64,000 nucleotides of DNA from Hormiphora californensis (lineage: Eukaryota; Animalia; Ctenophora), in the NCBI GenBank assembly GCA_020137815.1, contig CM035360.1, forward strand, positions 62,001 to 126,000, in the 5' to 3' direction. Each line of letters opens with the position of its first letter. Position 1 is the stretch's first letter. This document shows, one piece after another, positions 18,617 to 51,700 of this stretch. Position numbers and translations under genes: made by a program. The notes under the pieces were generated by a model. That model searched no databases. It saw only the letters and a list, made by a program, of their open reading frames with translations, and was not told where the DNA came from.

Positions 18617-20291
18617 AGTTTACAAGTTTACAAGTTTACAATTAAAGTTTTATTTATAAAGAAACAGGCCTTCCCTGAATGGGTCCACCTAAATAATATC
18701 AAGTTGAAAAACTATCCCTTCACACTCACACTCATCAGCACAGCACAGCACATTGAGGCGAAAGGTCATTAGGAAGTGGCGGGTACCCTCTGACTGGAGG
18801 ACGATCGTGAAATCCTGTCAAGTAATTGCCCAATGATGATTTGAACTGATTCAAGCTCACACAAGAATTGACAGCAGCAGGTAGAGTGTTCCATAAATGA
18901 GCTGCTCTTGGACCAAATGAGCAGTGAAATTGATTAGCTCGTTTCGTTTCTGCTCTATAGGGGTAAGGTGGTGGGACTATCCGCATACCCAGTCTAGCGT
19001 GCTGTTGAAATACTAGGTTGGCAGAGTTAGGTACAAAACCATGAATCGTCTTCCACACATGAATCAGAATGTAGCGCTGTCTCCGACGCTGAAGGGACAT
19101 AATATTGAGCAATTTCAGTCTATCCCAATAGTCATGACCCTGCATACCATCAAGACGTCTGGTGAAACAACGTTGGACATTCTCAATAGCCTTGATATCA
19201 CCAGCCTTGGAAGGGTTCCAGACTAGGCAACAGTACTCAAGAATAGGCCTGACCAAGGACTTGAAAAGCTGTACCATAACCTCCGGAGAACGGTCCCGAA
19301 AAACGCTGAATATCCAGCCACTCATGAGGGAAGCCTTCCGCACTATGATAGAAATGTGCCTCGTCCATGACCCATCTGCAGACATCTGGACACCCAGATC
19401 ACGAACATCAGGTTCGGGGGTCAACTGCACACCTGAGCTTGTAGTATATGAAAACACTTCAGCTGCGAAAGGAAACTGTCTGAGGATAGCAGACTTATTC
19501 AGACTATAGCTCAAGAGCTGAAATTTATCCTCATGTAACTTCATATTGTTCTTCTTTGCCCATTCTGCCACTCTTAAAATATCCGAAATAGCTTTTACCA
19601 ACTTAGTATCGTCAGCAAAAGTTAGACACATGCTACCGTCTAGCACTGACTCCAGGTCAAGAATATATATGAGGAAAAGAAGTGGTCCGAGCACACTACC
19701 CTGGGCAACCCCACTAAGTACCTCGGCCCAGGGTGACCTCACTCCATCCACCATTACACACTGATTCCTGCCCAGGATCCACGCACTGATCCACTGAAGG
19801 AGTTGACCTCCAATACCATATCGCCTCAATTTAGCTAGCAATACATTGATATCCACGGAATCAAATGCTTTACTAAAATCTAAGTAGATAGCATCGACTT
19901 CCTGATCACCGCATAGATCAGATAGGATGATGTCAACATGGGTTAGTAGCTGTGTCATGGTACTGCGCCCCTTCCTAAACCCATGCTGAGTGTCACTCTG
20001 CAACTCCATCTCGTCCAAGTAGTCACTGATCCGTTTCCTCACCAGCCGCTCAAACACTTTAGACAGGTGACTTGTTATAGACACTGGGCGATAGTTCACA
20101 GGTTTCGATTTAGCCCCCTTCTTGGATAATGGTGTTATGAACTGTTGCTTTAAGCAACTAGGGACAGATCCGTCTTCAAATGACCTGTTCCACAACATCC
20201 AAATCGGGTATGCCAGGCTACTGCTGCACTGTTTCAGAACAAAAGAAGGAATGCAGTCAGGAGGGGATGCTGAGAATGGTATGTTCTGCAA
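18617..20291 (-). mobile_element. 5'-truncated non-LTR retrotransposon (CR1/L2-group LINE), reverse transcriptase region
   Basis: ORF 18735-20291 with NYRPVSITS, QHGFRKGRST, LDFSKAFD, GVAQGSVLGP, FADDTK and VRPILEY; 3' AATAAA plus (TGTAAACT)3 microsatellite tail; no endonuclease or ORF1. Confidence 0.95.
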
Positions 20292-20831
20292 TGAAGAATC
20301 TGGGTGCGTAACCTTTGAGAGAAGGCTGATGCATATTGTTCTCGCCTATCACTTCTTTTTGAGCAAAATTTTGCATCAAAATGTAATATAATCATTTATA
20401 TATACCACTTTATAGTGTAAAATAATGGAGCACGCACCAACAGCCTACACTTGACATACTCGCTCACTTTCAAAAGTGGCATCACTTTCCTGTTTCCATC
20501 TTTCTCCGTAATCGCATCACCATTGTTCCTATCGTCCCTTATTATTGCTGTCATTGTAAATTATTGTTGTCATTGTAAATAGAATTCTTGAAGGCTTTAC
20601 CTTTTTCCTGGAGACCTCACCTCCCACTGTCAATTTATTGTTTCAGTACCATTATATCGTTTTTTATCTTGTTGACCCACCTCCAGACCACCAGTATCAC
20701 CTATTGGGTAAAGATAGAATGGTCCAAGTATCAAGTTTCACGAGTTAATCTAGTCAAATTCGTTTGTTGTTGGCGAAGACCTACGTTTACAGGATCCTAT
20801 TTGATATTTGTGTATTATCACGATTATAATA

Positions 20832-25689: not shown

Positions 25690-25863
25690 ATAGGATACTC
25701 AGCACCCTATAATGGACCCCTCCCTCCGTAACACCCCAACCTCTCTCCCAGCCTGCAACACCCTTCTCTCTCCCTCACACCCCCTCCCTCCCTAACACCC
25801 CTCTCTCTCTAACACCCCTCTCGCCTCCCACAGAGTGTGCCGGTACAGAGTGTGCCCCAACCG

Positions 25864-27606
25864 ATGGCCCAACACCCTATAATGGATCCAAGCTATCTCC
25901 CGGCCATGTACTACACCTCAGCTCTCAACTCACCTCCTGCAATGTCTGCCTTCCCTTTTATCAACAACAGTTACGATAATCTCGGGCTATCAGGAACTTG
26001 GTCAAATGCTGCTTTTGATGGACAGTATAATCAACTGCCCACATCCCAGGGACTTCATGATTTTAGGGATTTTGGTGGAGAGCAGCACACATACCCTGCA
26101 TCCCCTACTCTAACTTCTAGTTCCTATGGACAGCCCAATATGCCGGTTTATTTCCCTCCTAGTAGTACGAATGATTATTGCTGGACGACTGCTGGGCTGC
26201 CACCTAATATGGGTCACATGCCAGGTTTCAATTCCTTTAGTTCCTTCCAGCCCATGGGGGCTCCTTACCAGGGCGCCCAGGACGGGAAGGGAGGGAAGAC
26301 AGGGGGGACTGGGGGGACCAGTAACACGGAGTTGGATCATGTCGCTGAGTCGTTCAACAAACTCAGTACTGACGAACCACCCCCACCTGCCCCTGCTGAA
26401 ACTGGTGTGAAATCTTGGGCTGCTATTGCTAGTCAGCCGGCCAAACCAAAGCCTAAACCTGAGCCTGTTCCCTCTGCTCCATCTCCCAATACCTTTGGAC
26501 ATGGCATGAAGCCAGGTCCTCCTAGTATGAGAGGTGGGCATGTGAGGTGGTCTAGGTCCCGTGGACAATTCGGTCAGGATCCATCCTACCCTATCATTGA
26601 CCCCAGGCCCCCTCCTCCCCCGGCTGTACTTGAGAAGTTGAAATCTGAAAATCAGTACAACCCAAAGGACTTGACTCTGGACTTGAAAAACGCTCGGTAT
26701 TTTGTAATCAAATCGTATTCTGAGGACGATATCCACCGGTCAATCAAGTACAATATCTGGACGAGTACAGAGCACGGTAACAAGAGACTGAATGAGGCGT
26801 GGAATGAGAGCAAGGGACCCATCTATCTTGTGTTTAGTGTGAACGGTAGCGGACATTTTTGTGGTGTTGCTGAGATGATCTCTGGTGTTGACACCAATAT
26901 CTGTACTGGGGTGTGGTCGCAGGACAAATGGAAGGGGAAGTTCGATGTGAAGTGGGTTTATGTCAAGGATGTCCCTAACAACCAACTGAGACACATCAAA
27001 CTGGAGAATAACGATAACAAGCCTGTTACTAACTCCCGTGACACCCAGGAGGTTCCCAGGGATAAAGGGATCCAGTTGTTGAGGATTCTACACGATTACA
27101 AACACTCCACCAGCATATTTGATGATTTTGGGCACTATGAGAAGAGGCAGGATGAGGACAATGCCAGGAAGGTGAATAACACACAGGGGGAGTAGAGGGG
27201 TGGGTAGAGGGGGGTAGGGGGAGGACAATGCCAGGAAGGTGAATAACACACAGGGGGAGTAGAGGGGTGGGTAGAGGGGGGTAGGGGGAGGACAATGCTA
27301 GGAAGGTGTGTAACAAGGGGGAGTAGTGGGGTAGAGATAGTAGTGTGGGGGAGAGACAGGAGAGAGAGTAGGGGTAGTGGGAGTAGGGGGTGATGGAGAG
27401 GGGACAGGGGGAGAGAGTATTGAGGGAGGGACAGGAGTAGTGGCATGGGGAGTGGGGTAGAGGGGAGTAGTGTGCTAGAGAATAGAAGGGGGTCCAGGAT
27501 TCAAATTACTGAATTTTAACCCATTTCTCTCCTCTCTCAGGGTACCGATAGGAAACAATGGGCCACGGAGCCCAAGGACTCTGACAGCACTAAACCCAAA
27601 AACTAG
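25864..27606 (+). CDS. YTHDF: YTH-domain m6A reader (YTHDF family)
   Basis: Low-complexity N-terminus, [12 protein letters not shown] motif, and YTH domain ([49 protein letters not shown]); large exon to 27171, last exon 27541-27606; start codon uncertain. Confidence 0.96.
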
Positions 27607-44028: not shown

Positions 44029-44547
44029 TTAGTTAAAAATGTCAATCTGTGGTTTGCTTTTCTCCTTGTCAAGACCCTGTAACTCTGCCAATGCCTGTAC
44101 AATTAATTTTATCCTCGATTTGATATCACAACTCTTATCAGTCATTTTCTCAGCCTTCACCGTCAGTTGGTCGATCCTCTTCTTTACAACCCTAGTAGCC
44201 TCCTCAAATGTGCACTGGACATGAAGTCCCAACCCAACATCAACAAATATATAATCAGTGTTTTTCACTTCAGCCTGCATGAAGTATTCACACCCAATGT
44301 TCACTTTAGATTTGATCGGCCGCTTCTTTATCGGTAGGACTCGGTCGATATAAGTTTGCAGCTTTGTGTATTCTGATATCTCCTCATAAACAGCGTCTCT
44401 CTGCTCCAAAACATACTTCAAATCATTTTTCAGAACTTCATTCACGAACTCCTCATATTTCTGGATTTTCTCAGCCACTGCATCGGAGGATTGGACCTCA
44501 GACTGGTTCACTATAACACTCTCAGGATTGTAATCATAATACGCCAT
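44029..44547 (-). CDS. UXT: UXT, prefoldin alpha-like subunit (intronless CDS)
   Basis: EKIQKYEEFVNEVLKNDL..VNIGCEYFMQAEV..IFVDVGLGLHVQCTFEEA..LAELQGL. Confidence 0.9.
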   Translation of the reverse strand: MAYYDYNPESVIVNQSEVQSSDAVAEKIQKYEEFVNEVLKNDLKYVLEQRDAVYEEISEYTKLQTYIDRVLPIKKRPIKSKVNIGCEYFMQAEVKNTDYIFVDVGLGLHVQCTFEEATRVVKKRIDQLTVKAEKMTDKSCDIKSRIKLIVQALAELQGLDKEKSKPQIDIFN

Positions 44548-44899: not shown

Positions 44900-45121
44900 T
44901 AGTGGAAGCTCTTACGGTAATTCCCACGCCCCGTGGGAAAGTTTTTGAGCGTGAGAAAGTTTTCAAACCGTGGGAAAAGAGAGATACATACAATAACATA
45001 CAAAAAATAATTATTTTTTTAATGTTATTGTATGTATCTCTCTTTTCCCACGGTTTGAAAACTTTCCCACGGTCAAAAACTTTCCCACGGGGCGTGGGAA
45101 TTACCGTAAGAGCTTCCACTA
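44900..45121. mobile_element. Near-perfect palindromic MITE
   Basis: TAGTGGAAGCTCTTACGGTAATTCCCACGCCCCG...CGGGGCGTGGGAATTACCGTAAGAGCTTCCACTA. Confidence 0.9.
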
Positions 45122-45502
45122 TATGCTAAAGTCAAATTTTTTATTTAAGCGACAGGCCGCCGCGCATCAAAATGCAGCGCTTGAAATCGATTTCCAGTTC
45201 CTGATGAGCTAGCGACTTTTTCTTGGTGCCATTGGAAAGATAAACATTTTATCTTTCCAACGCAACCAGGATCAAGTCTTTATCTTATCAGGAACCGGAG
45301 ATATGACCAATTAACTAATTGTGTGTCGCTTAAATAAAAAATTCGACTAAAGTTCGTTTCAAGCGACTTGACCCGTAATTCTTGGAATTCGGCGCATCGC
45401 GCGTGTATTTACAAAGGGGAAATCCTGAATTTCCAGGAATCTCAGGTCAAGTCGTTTGAAACGCACTTTATACAGTAGGGTTATCTATTTGCGCAACGAA
45501 AG

Positions 45503-45541
45503 TCAAACTTTTCAACACTACTTTAAACAAATTAATTTGAG
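45503..45541 (+). other. Genomic copy of the ctenophore spliced-leader exon (retroposed, no GT donor after it)
   Basis: TCAAACTTTTCAACACTACTTTAAACAAATTAATTTGAG matches the Pleurobrachia SL as recalled; followed by TTTTAGG, 46 nt before an ATG. Confidence 0.85.
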
Positions 45542-45587
45542 TTTTAGGATAAAGCTGATGTAACAGCCCACGAGGGGCAGAAAGAAA

Positions 45588-46607
45588 ATGGTAAATACGG
45601 ATAATGAAGAAGAAGCAACTCCTCGGATTTACCTGGTAGCTCATCCTGGGAAACCGGCTACTGATATTGATAGGAGGAATGTCAACGACTGCCAACATGA
45701 TACAGTATATTGGGTAAAAGACTTGTTGTCGGAGTGTTCAGGGTTTGGATACAGTAACCCAGAGGCAGTGAGATATGGAACTGGTCCTCCACCAAGGTCT
45801 ACCTGGGATGATTTGGAGGTTCCGTCTGCGAGCAAGCTTAATACGCTGACGAAGAAAAAGCTGTTAGATTTTACTAAGAGGGCGTGTGGTATTTTGCTTG
45901 AACAGACATTCCCACTAATTCAAAAGTTGCGTGACAAGGGTTGTGAAAGTATGATGGTTAGAGAGTGCAAAGAGGAGCTCAGACAGCACGGAAAGGAGCT
46001 AATTAAAGCTCAACGAGACCTAGTAGCGGCACAAGAGGAACTACTCAATATCCAGAGGCAGTTGCTTGAAAAGAGGGAGGTTGAGATTACAGCTGTGCAG
46101 TCAACGGCACAGCAAGAAATGAAGAGCTTCTCCTCCGTTTTGAAGGAAGAATGTGCCTCGGCGCTGGCGCCAAAGAAAATTCAATCAGCTATTGTGGCAG
46201 CCTCTGAGGACCGTGGGTGCAACATCATCATCCATGGCCTGGAAGAGTCAATAAATAGTAGCGTGGAGCTTGAAACTCAAGTAGAGTCTCTTCTTGTTGA
46301 GCTAGGAGAGACTCAGAACGTGAAATCAGTGGAGCGCTTGGGAAGGCAGTCTTTAACTGTCAGACCAGTGAAAGTCGTACTGAAGAGCAGAGACGCTCAG
46401 ATGTCGATCCTGTCGAAAAAATCCCGACTAAAAAGGACCGGCAAGTTCGATAAGGTCTTCATTTCGCCTGACAGGACTTTGGAGGAACGAAATGAGAGAA
46501 GACAGCTTGTTGATCGACTGAAGGAAATGGTTCAAAGGTATCCTGGAAAACACTACTTCATTCGTGGGAAGGAGGTGGTGGAAGCACCAGGGACCACTGA
46601 GAATTGA
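45588..46607 (+). CDS. LINE ORF1-like protein (coiled coil, RRM-like domain, C-terminal domain), 339 aa
   Basis: Heptad region followed by NIIIHGLEE..VERLG..RPVKVVL..VFISPDRTLEERNERRQLV..LK, typical of CR1/L2-group ORF1p. Confidence 0.85.
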   Translation: MVNTDNEEEATPRIYLVAHPGKPATDIDRRNVNDCQHDTVYWVKDLLSECSGFGYSNPEAVRYGTGPPPRSTWDDLEVPSASKLNTLTKKKLLDFTKRACGILLEQTFPLIQKLRDKGCESMMVRECKEELRQHGKELIKAQRDLVAAQEELLNIQRQLLEKREVEITAVQSTAQQEMKSFSSVLKEECASALAPKKIQSAIVAASEDRGCNIIIHGLEESINSSVELETQVESLLVELGETQNVKSVERLGRQSLTVRPVKVVLKSRDAQMSILSKKSRLKRTGKFDKVFISPDRTLEERNERRQLVDRLKEMVQRYPGKHYFIRGKEVVEAPGTTEN

Positions 46608-46933
46608 AATTAAATTTGTTGAGTTTAGAAGTGATGAGCGAGGAAAGGACAGTTGAGTTGAAAGGTGGTCATTTGTTTGATAGCCTCAATTATTTTTCAA
46701 GTTTCAAGTTTCAAGTTTCAAGGAATGTTCGGGCGTCCAGCATGATGACCAGGGGACTTAAGGGGTTCAGAGAATCACTTGCGCGTAGGCAGCAACCCTG
46801 TGGGCGAGCCGTACGGGCCGATAGTTAATAATAGTTTTTTAAAGTTTTTAAAAGTTAATAAAAGTTAAAAATGCGCGGCACCCTGAAAAGCCGAAAAAAA
46901 ATAACTTTTTCAGGGTTCCGCGCATTTTTAACT

Positions 46934-47571
46934 ACTAGTAAGCCCGCTCGCCCTACGGGCGAATGTCGGGGATGGTCAATGGTCATACAGTAAACTAAGC
47001 AAATAGTGTAGTATCATTTGAAATTTTTTAAATCAGTAAATTTATCAGGTAAATTAACCACAGCGATTCTTTCGACAGAAAAACCACGGGTCCTCTTTTG
47101 CCAGGTCCTGAAGTATTTTATGAAGGAGCACATTTGCAAAATACTTTCACGTATTACTGCCATTTCTTATTAGTGCCATTGATACTTTGTTATTACGTGT
47201 GTTGACAACATTTTTTGAATAATATAATCACCTCTTTTTTAGGATTCTATCACGTAGTCTATAGGCGTCAGCGCCAGTTTGGGACATATGGCTCCTCCAA
47301 ACTCGCTGGCGATTGTGTTGAAGTTGAGTAGTCATGTTCACGAAACGTGGTGAACAGGGGGTGAACAGATCAAATCGAGCAAACGATCAATCACACAACC
47401 GGCAGAGAGATGAATCAAGGATGCACGTGCAGTTTAAGGCTCAAGCTGGCAGGTTGCCAGGGTCCCTCTAGGGACAACACGTGCAAAAGGCCATTTCCAG
47501 GAATTTTGTGCCATATTTGGTAAAAAAACCATCACCCATCATTTCCCTATTTGCTTTAATAATAGTATGAT
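46934..47571 (+). mobile_element. Helentron-associated (HINE-like) non-autonomous element
   Basis: Begins ACTAGTAAGCCCGCTCGCCCTACGGGCGA (short hairpin) and ends GCTTTAATAATAGTATGAT; interrupts the host inverted repeat. Confidence 0.5.
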
Positions 47572-47699
47572 TTATAACTTTTATTAACTTTTAAAAACTT
47601 TAAAAAACTATTATTAACTATCGGCCCGTACGGCTCGCCCACAGGGTTGCTGCCTGCGCGCATATGATTCTCTGAATCCATTTAGACCCCCGGTCCTCA

Positions 47700-47926
47700 T
47701 AGGGATCCCTAATAAAGTTGTGACTTGTCACCAAACATGTGGTTCCCGTGGCGGCGCGGCTTCAAAACCCTTGTCAATGCGCGATTGTAACTTGTCACCG
47801 CATGGTTTGCACCGCGCCGCAGCTACGCGCAGTGGGAACCATGTGCGTTTTGGTACGCGGTGACAAGTCACAACTGCGCCTCCGCAAGACTACAGTGACA
47901 AGTCACAACTTTATTAGGGATCCCTA
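47700..47926. mobile_element. MITE nested in the host foldback arm
   Basis: TAGGGATCCCTAATAAAGTTGTGACTTGTCAC...GTGACAAGTCACAACTTTATTAGGGATCCCTA. Confidence 0.88.
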
Positions 47927-48105
47927 TGCTGGACGCCCGAAGTCTCGAAAAGCCAATTCCAAAGATCGATAACCCTCAAAGCCGTGGAAAACGCGCGCAC
48001 TTGGGGCCTGCAGCGCATGCCAAAGGTGAGCCGTGAGACCAAAAATGTCAAATTTCGCGATTGGTGGAAGTTTTTGGAAGGTTTTTAAAATTTTGATTTC
48101 TCTAA

Positions 48106-48257
48106 ATGAGGCCCCTCGGAAATGTTCAAGTCATGCACAATCAAGTCACGCCCACCAATCACAGCTTAGAACGCGCGGAGTGCTTCGCGCGTTCTGAGCT
48201 GTGATTGGTGGGCGTGACTTGATTGTGCATGACTTGAACATTTCCGAGGGGCCTCAT
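48106..48257. repeat. 152-bp palindrome immediately upstream of LIG3
   Basis: ~73-bp arms, nearly perfect; each arm carries CCAAT and CACGCCC. Confidence 0.9.
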
Positions 48258-48720
48258 AAAATCAACATAACAGGCGCGGCGTAGTTCAAACTTCCAATTT
48301 TACAGGAATCGGCTGAAAAGGCGGACAAAACGCTGCATTCGCGCCGCGCTCAGTAAGTTTATGCGACACGACGCCCAAACTTTTCAAGATGGCCGTTTTT
48401 TGCTTCTTTTTTCGTCCTCCCGGTGTGTCTGTTGCCTGTAACTGGCCCCTATTGTCAAGCGTTTTAGTTCCATCCCGTGCATTCTGCAACAAGGTTCAGG
48501 CAGCGTATGCAAGCCACCTGGTTGCAGGTTGACGAGTGTTTGGTGGCCATCAGCGGTCAGCCACACCCTATGGGCATCAAGACTCAGCGTAGACTGACAT
48601 TTTTGGAGGGTTTGTGAGACTAGCGCTCCTTCCAGCTAGCACGAAGTCATCTAAATCCCTTCAGAAAATTTTGATAACTCACGGCTGCGGGCTGACCAGG
48701 TTCACTTCCAGCAATAGCTC

Positions 48721-51700
48721 ATGTCTAGCGATACCCAACTATTATTCCGATGTGATTATGCTAAGACAAACCGTAGTGGCTGCAAGAAATGCAAGGTAAT
48801 ATGTTTGTATGAAGTTGACTCATCAATTGTCTCCAGTATCATTTGTCTATTCATCTAATATTTGGTATCATTTGACAGGAAAAGATTGACAAGGGGGTAC
48901 TACGGATTGCTAAATTGAAGACCAATCCGTTCAGTGATGACGGAGGGCTGATGACAGATTGGCATCATGCTAAATGTGTCTTTGAAACATTCGCTAAAGC
49001 CAGGGTGTGTAGTCAAACATCGTGTCCATACTGTTGAACAAAATCACTAGCACCTTTAAATCTTGCCTAGCTAGACTCTGTTTCGCGTGCCCGCCCGCCC
49101 TCCTTTACAAATTGAAAGGAGGGTTAGAACATAACAATATAAATCACCGTGTTATCCTCCCAAAGGCAACGACGAAGAAGATTGAATGCCCGGAAGATAT
49201 TGAGCATTTTGATACGTTAGAAGATGCTGATAAGAAGATCATTGAAGACCTGATAGCCAACTATCTGGCTACAAGAAAGGATGTCAAATCTAAAACCCCC
49301 GCTAAGAAAAAACAAGCGCCTGGCCAATCTGTTCTCTCTCCGCCTCCTCCAGCCACATCAAACAACAAGCCTGGCACACCTTTAAAATCTCCCAACAAAA
49401 AGCCCTCGTCAGAACCTTTTAGCGTAAGTATTGAGTGTACTTAGGTACATACTGTTGTTCAGAATCAGAAAGTTTTGACAGTGAGTCTACACCGTTTCGT
49501 TTTGCAAGTAAACAACCAATCAGAACTCATTATTTAGGTCACGTGACTGGTTATCAGCCAATCAGGGACCAGTATTTGCTGGTCGGTTCCTGATAGTGAG
49601 TCTACACCGTTTCGTTTTACAAATAAAGATACAATATGATTAGAAATATAATTGTTTTAGGTAATTGTGGGACTGTGTGACAAGCTACGAAAAGAAACAA
49701 GTTACAATGCCAAAAGCGAAATAATTCAGAATTACATCTCCAAGTCTCCACCAAACCCCTATCTCTCCCTCAAACTTCTCATCCCCTCCGTCGATAAGAG
49801 AGTGTACAATTTGGGTGACAAACAGATTGTCAAGGTGCTATCGGTTGTCCTAAAAACGTCGCAAGATGAGATGATAGAACATCTTGAAAAGGGTGACGTG
49901 GGGGCAACGGGACGACACTACTACAAACGGTCCTCACTCCGCAAACCTGACATTGCCATAGCAACCATGGAACAAGTTGACAAGTTCCTGGAAAAACTAA
50001 CTGGTATGACGCGAGAGGATGAGCAGGTGCTACATTTTAAATCCTTTATTCCCCTGTGTACACCAATCGAACTACAACATCTGCTGTACCTCATCAAGAA
50101 GGATTTGAGGATTAACGCTCGAGAGAAACACATCCTGATAGGAGTACACCCCCGGGCATACACCGCCTTTCAGCACTCACACAATCTCCGTGATGTGGTC
50201 GATAAGTTTATCGGAGGAGTATCAGGAGGGGAGTCTAGTACAACAACAAGTAATGTTGGATTACAACTGATGACACCCATTAGACCCATGTTGGCTGAGG
50301 CGTGTAAATCAGTGGCCCAAGCACTTGGAAAGTGTCCGCAGGGAATGTACAGTGAAATCAAGTATGACGGAGAGAGGGTTCAACTCCACAAAAAGGATAA
50401 AGAGTTCCAGTTTTTTAGCCGCAGTTTGAAACCAGTTTTACCTCACAAAGTGAAAGATGTGAAAGAGTTTGTACCAAAAGCATTTCCCACCGGGAACTCT
50501 CTAATTCTAGATTGTGAAGTTCTGTTAGTGGACAACTGCACTGGTAAACCCCTTCCGTTTGGTACTCTTGGTGTGCATAAGAAGGAGCAGTTCAAGAGTG
50601 CCAGTGTGTGCTTGTTCGTGTTCGATATCCTGTATCTGAATGGAGAGAGCTTGGTTGGGAAGACGGTCAAGAAAAGAAGGGCGCTGTTAGCAGATATAAT
50701 CACTGAGATACCAAACAGAATCCTACTTAGTGAGATGAAGGTGAGACAAAAAATAGGAGTATTACATTGATAATCTGATATTTGGATGATGTATAAATTA
50801 TCCGTCGTACTAATTAGTATAGGCAAGTGTAAACTATTTTGACAAGGCTAATATCGATAGTTGCTAACATACCCTCCTTTCAGTTGCTAACATACCATCC
50901 TTTCAGTTTGTCAAGACAGCCAGTGAGCTAGCTGGTATGATATCTCATGTCCTGAGAGAGGGACTGGAAGGTCTTGTACTGAAGGGTGTGGAGACCATCT
51001 ACGAACCTGGAAAGAGACATTGGCTGAAAGTGAAGAAGGATTACCTTCAGGTAACATCGGGAGAGAGGCAGAGAAAGAGAGTAGAGACAGAGTAGACACA
51101 GATACAGACACAGTCCACAGACACAGACAGAGAATCAAAAGAGCGGTACGCATGACCCAACTGCAACCATATAATATCATTATCATCCTCTCTACTACAA
51201 TTATTGCCCCCAGGGTGGCTCCATGGCTGATAGTGCTGATCTGGTGGTGCTAGGTGGTTATCTAGGAACGGGTAACAAGGGTGGTATGTGCTCTGTCTTC
51301 CTCATGGGGTGTTACTGCCCTGTCTCAAAGATGTGGAAAACTGTCTGTAAAGTCGGAAATGGGTAGGTAGCTGTCATGTTTAGTAGCCCTGCCGTATAAC
51401 ATCTGTATCTAAATTCAGATCTCTCGCTCCCTTACCTCCACTTGATATCTAACATCCCTCCCCTATCACCATTCTCCTCTCTAATTAGCTGTCTTACCAC
51501 CCTCTCTAATCAACCCTCTATTCCCAACAGGCACGACGATGCAGCCCTGGAGAAAATCAGTAATCACATGTTAATCACAGCCACCAAGATTAAGGGAGAT
51601 TACTCCCGGAAACCCCCCTGGCTCTCCATTTCCCGGGGTCTCATGCCCGATTTCCTGGTTCCAGATCCCAAATCCTCCCCCGTTTGGGAGATAACGGGGG

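Follow-up and report, generated by a model that had tools for sequence, protein, structure and literature searches.

The 64,000-nucleotide stretch of the Hormiphora californensis genome analysed here (the window) holds a short retroelement that lies between a prefoldin gene (minus strand, 44029-44547) and a DNA ligase gene (plus strand, start near 48721), amid inverted-repeat elements. An earlier note on this DNA had described, from 5' to 3', a 39-mer with no GT donor behind it, a 46-nt UTR, a 339-aa ORF, a 3' UTR and a (TTTCAAG)4 tail, with no ORF2, and every one of its coordinates was confirmed (Table 1). The tail starts 87 nt past the ORF1 stop, no endonuclease-RT frame lies in between, and there is no ORF2 over 46608-48900, where the longest stop-free stretch on the plus strand measures 82 codons.

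The surroundings (44900-48257) form a crowded nest of inverted-repeat elements, with a near-perfect palindrome of 222 nt at 44900-45121 and a 959-nt element (46742-47700) that sits in the same inverted-repeat arm as the retroelement. The prefoldin-family gene and a YTH-domain gene (25813-27195, plus strand) each consist of a single long open frame. An Rfam scan returned hairpin-type matches only, all below the gathering score and mostly in the flanking inverted repeats, and of eight end regions that were folded none was more stable than its shuffles (z -1.28 to 0.25).

Table 1 Parts of the retroelement and of the inverted-repeat element that it interrupts, in window positions
Feature	Position	Strand	Observation
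Spliced-leader (SL) copy, 39 nt, without GT donor	45503-45541	+	39/39 identity to the published leader
TTTCAA, probable target duplication (6 nt) or microhomology, left copy	45510-45515	+	right copy at 46716-46721
TTTTAG, likely second trans-splice acceptor	45542-45547	+	missing from the second head form
5' UTR, 46 nt	45542-45587	+	46/46 identity with L002
ORF1, 339 aa	45588-46607	+	fold match to LINE-1 ORF1p; dN/dS 0.28 against L002
3' UTR, 87 nt; would hold the recognition site of a partner RT	46608-46694	+	last 59 nt identical in L002 (59/59)
(TTTCAAG)4 microsatellite tail	46695-46722	+	same repeat unit closes L002
Left flank, start of the inverted-repeat element arm interrupted by the retroelement	45477-45502	+	aligns with 47895-47976 reversed
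Same interrupted arm, continuation	46722-46743 and 47701-47731		alignment to the other arm
Other arm of the interrupted inverted-repeat element	47895-47976	-	shows the target site without interruption, though diverged

ORF1 and its relatives

Sequence searches of Pfam and PDB gave ORF1 no name, and Pfam annotation of 30 relatives returned no LINE families. Its fold was therefore sought in an AlphaFold2 model built from a 19-sequence alignment (mean pLDDT 73, pTM 0.37), in which a long helix with a predicted coiled coil (residues 122-192) is followed by an RRM (about 210-295) and a C-terminal domain (298-332). Foldseek, run with this model, placed human LINE-1 (L1) ORF1p at all of ranks 1 to 10 (best E 6e-5). 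VIA-align, a comparison that is not independent of Foldseek, had human L1 ORF1p at ranks 1 to 5, with Z 11.0 and rmsd 2.4 for the RRM (88 aligned) and Z 10.7 and rmsd 3.3 over residues 202-336 (128 aligned), generic RRMs scoring lower, at Z 9.1. From the modelled fold, ORF1 is predicted to be a type II, or L1-like, LINE ORF1 protein, and the claim of the earlier note that the frame is a LINE ORF1 gains support from the place of human L1 ORF1p at the top of both comparisons of the model. The type II layout occurs in L1, CR1, L2 and R1 elements (PMC4120745), so ORF1 does not fix the parent clade.

A profile search with E values up to 0.001 collected 10,109 representatives of the ORF1 family. Relatives of ORF1 numbered 18 among 3925 candidates, at 37-96% identity; the closest protein cluster includes a member labelled Pleurobrachia bachei, and most Atlas neighbours for which a phylum is recorded belong to Ctenophora. 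The long proteins P0075 and P0196 (Pleurobrachia) were rejected as two-ORF relatives, since they are host-gene models that swallowed an ORF1: they join the ORF1 family to nuclease and glycosyltransferase domains of the host and are likely intronic insertions mis-joined by gene prediction. Two distant relatives on 4.3 kb contigs (P0112 and P0247) are candidate autonomous two-ORF elements.

Metagenome candidate stretches encode ORF1 relatives in 4 of 33 cases (L001-L004). L002 (69% aa) carries a 42-nt leader match, TTTTAG, the UTR, the 3' end and the tail unit just as in the window, behind a different upstream flank, and the two copies are identical over the leader (39/39), the 5' UTR (46/46) and the last 59 nt of the 3' UTR (59/59), as compared with 67-87% along the length of the ORF. 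The dN/dS among copies, which the earlier note had proposed as a check, came to 0.28 between the window and L002 (bootstrap 0.20-0.38) at a dS of 0.56, taken over 326 codons in the two segments that flank a frameshift in L002; by region it is 0.65 in the first third of ORF1 and 0.10-0.15 in the remainder. Judged by these codon comparisons, ORF1 is under purifying selection. At the synonymous rate, the chance of the identity seen in UTRs and head is 2e-23, and an unchanged head with unchanged UTRs at a dS of 0.56 argues that the whole head is under selection or was recently exchanged. The pairing of a fast first third (L002:142-200 against window 45588-45970) with identical UTRs may reflect modular exchange of ends or an N-terminal arms race.

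L001 (53% aa) is also ORF1-only, with a (TGA)n microsatellite 188 nt past the stop, on a contig that begins 25 nt 5' of the ATG and so does not reach as far as any head. No leader (best match 15/26) stands in the 5' sequence of L003 (44%) or L004 (39%), which extends over some 110 and 420 nt, respectively. The leader is thus present in the two close subfamilies and absent from the two distant relatives. A short GC-rich hairpin stands just 5' of the ATG in the window copy (45566-45580) and at L001:1-16, and is not significant against shuffles.

As for copy number, many variant contigs cover the ORF in each of four runs (4/4), as in an interspersed multi-copy family, and L002 shares the ends of the element in another flank, both of which uphold the earlier note's claim of a multi-copy family. 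Contigs of the relatives have a median length of 1249 nt, with 42 of 62 at 1.0-1.7 kb and one of 62 above 3 kb (3 of 65 rows are without a length); such lengths fit a short unit and carry little weight, because assemblies of this type are short anyway. Summed depth is higher over the 3' half of the element, through 5' truncation or merely greater conservation.

The earlier note had offered two options, a non-autonomous family or a LINE with ORF1 expressed from an RNA of its own, and the first fits better and the second less well, since in two subfamilies separated by a dS of 0.56 ORF1 is directly followed by the tail. The second option, in which ORF1 is the separately trans-spliced message of an autonomous LINE, may be taken together with the idea that the copies are retrocopies of a domesticated ORF1 host gene. 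Purifying selection on ORF1 would suit either version, as would the 4.3 kb contigs of some distant relatives, which are long enough for a two-ORF LINE, but the microsatellite tail comes directly after ORF1 in the window, L002 and L001, each run holds many variant copies, and the longer relatives include no ORF1-RT fusion (the single match among the longer proteins is a host-gene model), all of which makes an autonomous LINE or a host gene highly improbable.

The leader head and its two junctions

The 39-mer at the head of the element is identical (39/39) to the 3' 39 nt of the 44-nt leader printed for Hormiphora californensis (PMC8527503), in agreement with the earlier note's claim that it is a ctenophore SL. 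Chance matches expected in the window number 4e-18 for the 39 nt and 1e-10 for the 3' 26 nt of the leader, and the 3' 24 nt of the leader, at up to 3 mismatches, has one copy in the window. TTTTAG rather than a GT donor stands directly 3' of the leader, so that it does not have the form of an SL RNA gene; an intronless ORF headed by a donorless leader has instead the form of an SL-relic retrocopy. A search for tandem relics of the leader 5' of both the window copy and L002 gave nothing significant (p 0.07-0.67). Leader identity across copies does not discriminate between readings, since both UTRs are equally identical.

Sequencing runs that contain part of the stretch number 20 of the 24 listed. 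The whole region was compared with four of them (X1, X3, X4 and X8) and the head (45523-45720) with X1, X2, X4 and X15; that the runs are of DNA is a presumption, supported by a far higher depth on intergenic repeats than on the ORF. In X1, an exact 252-nt contig begins at 45546, the AG of TTTTAG, and one contig (depth 303) has a 6-nt gap behind the leader and otherwise no difference, next to long-head contigs at depths of 435 and 443. The same gap occurs in X2 in two contigs (depth 44 of 1247), and the short head is not among the X4 records listed, which places it in two of the three presumed-DNA runs examined over the head. The gap is the exact loss of TTTTAG, i.e., the leader is joined at the next AG, and it is the sole gap of more than 1 nt among the head records listed. 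Of 885 distinct deletions of 1-20 nt possible in the head, two would mimic a leader-to-AG splice. Copies of the element thus start with the leader, whose junction lies on one or the other side of TTTTAG, and the guess of the earlier note that this motif could serve as a second acceptor proved apt.

An X1 contig of 32 nt (depth 98) can be placed so that it connects the short head with a body of the window type (the 252-nt contig, with no difference), so that in X1 both head forms likely sit, to judge by how the contigs abut, on near-identical bodies. X1 and X2 are two samples of a single study, X2 being rich in 1-nt gaps, and the comparison of junctions is not fully independent, since the hint given by the 252-nt contig came before it. 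If X1 were an RNA run, the short head would represent a transcript and not an integrated copy. Leader-bearing RNA was not seen in the single RNA run, X15, whose coverage is confined to 45621-45720, downstream of the leader.

Two other readings of the junctions have to be weighed. According to one, the leader was captured once and is now a fixed head, possibly an internal promoter as in SINEs, at which the RNA starts without normally being re-spliced, and the short head arose by slippage between AGs. The constancy of the long head and of both UTRs at a dS of 0.56 (chance 2e-23) is what this would predict, as is the lack of a tandem relic upstream; an X1 contig (depth 146, with a counterpart in X2) carries the first 35 nt of the head into a different body, so that the same head is found on a third, different body, and a promoter role has been proposed for dinoflagellate leader relics (PMC6050394). 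The sole multi-base gap listed for the head is, however, precisely the removal of the letters from leader end to AG, an outcome given by 2 of the 885 possible deletions, and about 30% of Hydra transposon Iso-Seq reads bear a leader (PMC12220107), so such trans-splicing is common. On balance we consider a fixed head rather unlikely.

According to the other, one or a few masters keep a promoter and an outron with two alternative acceptors, and the leader-headed copies are dead ends. Both heads would then be explained without re-splicing of a relic, and the frameshift in L002 and the ordinary 5' sequence of L003 and L004 are in keeping with it. X1 depths are also unbalanced, with 443 and 98 entering a body contig whose own depth is 206, which means that records are missing and that an outron-bearing master may be hidden; the X1 records are incomplete, and X2 and X4 are known from the records listed, beyond which there are 179 pieces and 4 loose ends. 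In opposition to such masters, all seven X1 records at the 5' end are free of any long non-leader sequence ahead of the UTR (outron form in 0/7), and a separate master, derived from unspliced RNA, would be required for each of several subfamilies that are under purifying selection. An outron-bearing master is, in our judgement, distinctly unlikely.

Target site and 3' end

Contigs join 45509 to 46722 in X1 (one contig, depth 322) and X4 (two contigs, depth 4555), and not in X3 or X8; the intervening letters of the joint are not given, and joints of low likeness can stem from repeats. Read from these contigs, the joint marks an empty site within a repeat. TTTCAA lies just inside both ends of the element, the joint brackets it, and the uninterrupted other arm in the window has a similar motif at the matching position. 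The target would already have resembled the first 13 nt of the leader and the tail unit, and the copy is likely to have used homology at both ends. Since the first 13 leader nt may be shared with the target, only the 3' 26 nt must be RNA-derived in this copy; the view of the earlier note that the whole 39-mer derives from the leader thus stands for those 26 nt, the first 13 (45503-45515) probably overlapping the target. A 13-nt match to the target motif at 48376-48388, ahead of the ligase III gene, was set aside as likely chance.

These joints also bear on whether the element is an assembly artefact or cDNA contamination. No listed contig covers the element with both of its flanks, as an artefact would have it, but the leader-UTR junction is found in three presumed-DNA runs and in an independent metagenome contig (L002) with another flank, and the flanks are joined as an empty site in other contigs, which leaves an artefact a very nearly negligible probability.

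The LINE partner that the earlier note had proposed to look for, one that shares the 3' end and the TTTCAAG tail, was not found in the collections searched, i.e., the window and the prokaryotic and viral sets. An RT-bearing LINE fragment in the window (18617-20345, minus strand, with the RT part at 18735-20345) was rejected as the partner, since it has another tail, (TGTAAACT)3, and no significant 3' match. The tail pattern had no matches in genome contigs and the leader pattern none in viral contigs, and relatives of the ORF were found in 0 of 51 and 0 of 18 candidate stretches. These empty searches for partner, leader and tail mean little, because the collections are prokaryotic and viral. 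As a lead only, five X1 contigs attach other sequence to the element end from 46677 on (the last 46 nt). Microsatellite tails are a feature of LINEs of the CR1 and L2 group. The element has both this trait and a type II ORF1, neither of which is exclusive to that group.

A proposed life cycle through trans-spliced RNA and its counterparts

That the element passed through trans-spliced RNA is very probable. The reading that we favour, with a probability of roughly 0.6, is that of an ORF1-only non-autonomous LINE whose RNA was trans-spliced more than once along the lineage and was copied by a putative partner LINE. Transcription of a leader-headed DNA copy would start either outside it, by read-through, or at a promoter in the head, and a fresh capped leader would then be spliced either at the terminal AG of the old leader, which would rebuild the long head, or at TTTTAG, which would give the short one. 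ORF1p would be made and would coat the element RNA in cis, and such action on its own RNA could account for the purifying selection under which ORF1 is kept. The partner enzyme would bind the conserved 3' end and prime at a TTTCAA-containing site paired with the tail, and the cDNA would extend nearly to the cap and, in the case of the window copy, may have joined the target via the 13 nt common to the 5' part of the leader and the target.

Splice acceptors preferentially end in YAG. TTTTAG looks, by this rule, a better acceptor than the final GAG of the leader, so that constant re-splicing should erode the long head. The long head nevertheless persists in both subfamilies (the window and L002), the chief objection to the favoured reading, which keeps alive the fixed-head and outron-master readings.

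In a bolder form of the favoured reading, an element with neither promoter nor enzyme would live on read-through copies, trans-splicing at the final AG of the relic would rebuild the full unit in every cycle, TTTCAA in the leader would close integration by homology, and many of the roughly 700 Hormiphora leader copies would be such heads. That the leader might serve as integration homology follows from the presence of TTTCAA in both its 5' part and the tail. We put this form forward tentatively, as a possibility that we doubt more than we believe.

A non-LTR element has to retain its 5' end or make it anew, by means of internal promoters or ribozymes. Host trans-splicing would, if the favoured reading is true, be a third way for non-LTR elements to restore it, and the two leader junctions would preserve in DNA the splicing events of the life cycle of the element itself. 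Like NeSL, CRE, SLACS and CZAR, the element is a retroelement beside leader sequence. Those four are autonomous, have their own RT and are inserted inside SL RNA genes. That type was rejected for the element in the window, whose flanks are an inverted-repeat arm, with no SL intron downstream and no RT. Another type that was rejected is HAL1 proper. Its tail is poly(A). The tail of the element is (TTTCAAG)n, and a type II ORF1 is also found in CR1, L2 and R1 (PMC4120745).

ORF1-only LINEs as such are known, namely HAL1 (L1 clade), HeT-A (Jockey) and Ag-Sponge (CR1 clade) (PMC5786205, PMC5753468). As these are described in the available parts of those papers, the Hormiphora element shares with them an ORF1p and no other protein, a LINE-type 3' end, multiple copies and an ORF1 under purifying selection, and differs from them in its host SL head, two junction forms, microsatellite tail and ctenophore host. 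R2, R1, R4 and other LINEs carry self-cleaving ribozymes at the 5' end (PMC5786205). If the favoured reading holds, the element would resemble them in that the 5' end of its RNA is cut from a longer transcript, so that an upstream promoter of its own is not needed; unlike them, it encodes no RT, it has no Rfam match at the gathering score, and the host spliceosome would do the cutting and the capping.

Leader sequence in the DNA of mobile elements has been met before as well. In Schistosoma mansoni, six retrotransposon loci bear a leader (PMC5832876), a flatworm survey set aside 597 leader loci near LTR and LINE elements (PMC12582326), and the authors of both papers took such loci to be integrated trans-spliced retrotransposon RNA. 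In the accessible parts of these papers, the flatworm loci are mentioned in passing, their leaders are partial and no anatomy of a family is given; the Hormiphora element, unlike them, has a near-full leader across subfamilies, is ORF1-only and has a second junction at the next AG. Dinoflagellate relict DinoSL retrogenes carry leader relics, sometimes in tandem, that record repeated cycles (PMC6050394), and there too a donorless leader ahead of an ORF marks passage via trans-spliced RNA. As far as the available part of that source goes, the cycles of DinoSL stack tandem relics on host genes, whereas none was detected on the Hormiphora element, a selfish one, in which a new cycle likely leads to replacement of the leader or to a 6-nt shortening. 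Literature records seen at the level of titles and the openings of abstracts included no ctenophore element of such a kind and no case of copies that differ in their leader junction. ORF1-only LINEs, on the one hand, and retrotransposon loci with a leader, on the other, are thus known, and we have not found their combination with two splice junctions reported.

The Hormiphora genome holds 718 leader copies and that of Mnemiopsis 491, the nature of which is left unexplained in the accessible part of the source (PMC8527503). Trans-splicing of mobile elements would offer a testable account of these hundreds of copies, and a caution follows, namely that genomic leader copies in ctenophores are not all SL genes. 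In X1 and X3, respectively, 22 and 28 contigs run on behind the leader into diverse sequence (agreement 0.45), with a consensus that does not begin with GT, and from these contigs it would seem that leader-headed loci are common. In X1, the first six letters of the consensus behind the leader are those found immediately after the next UTR AG (45555), which may point to a third form of junction or to related heads. Lastly, 35 nt of the head (45546-45580) are followed in X1 and X2 by at least 123-255 nt of an unrelated body, in what may be a second element family with a common head.
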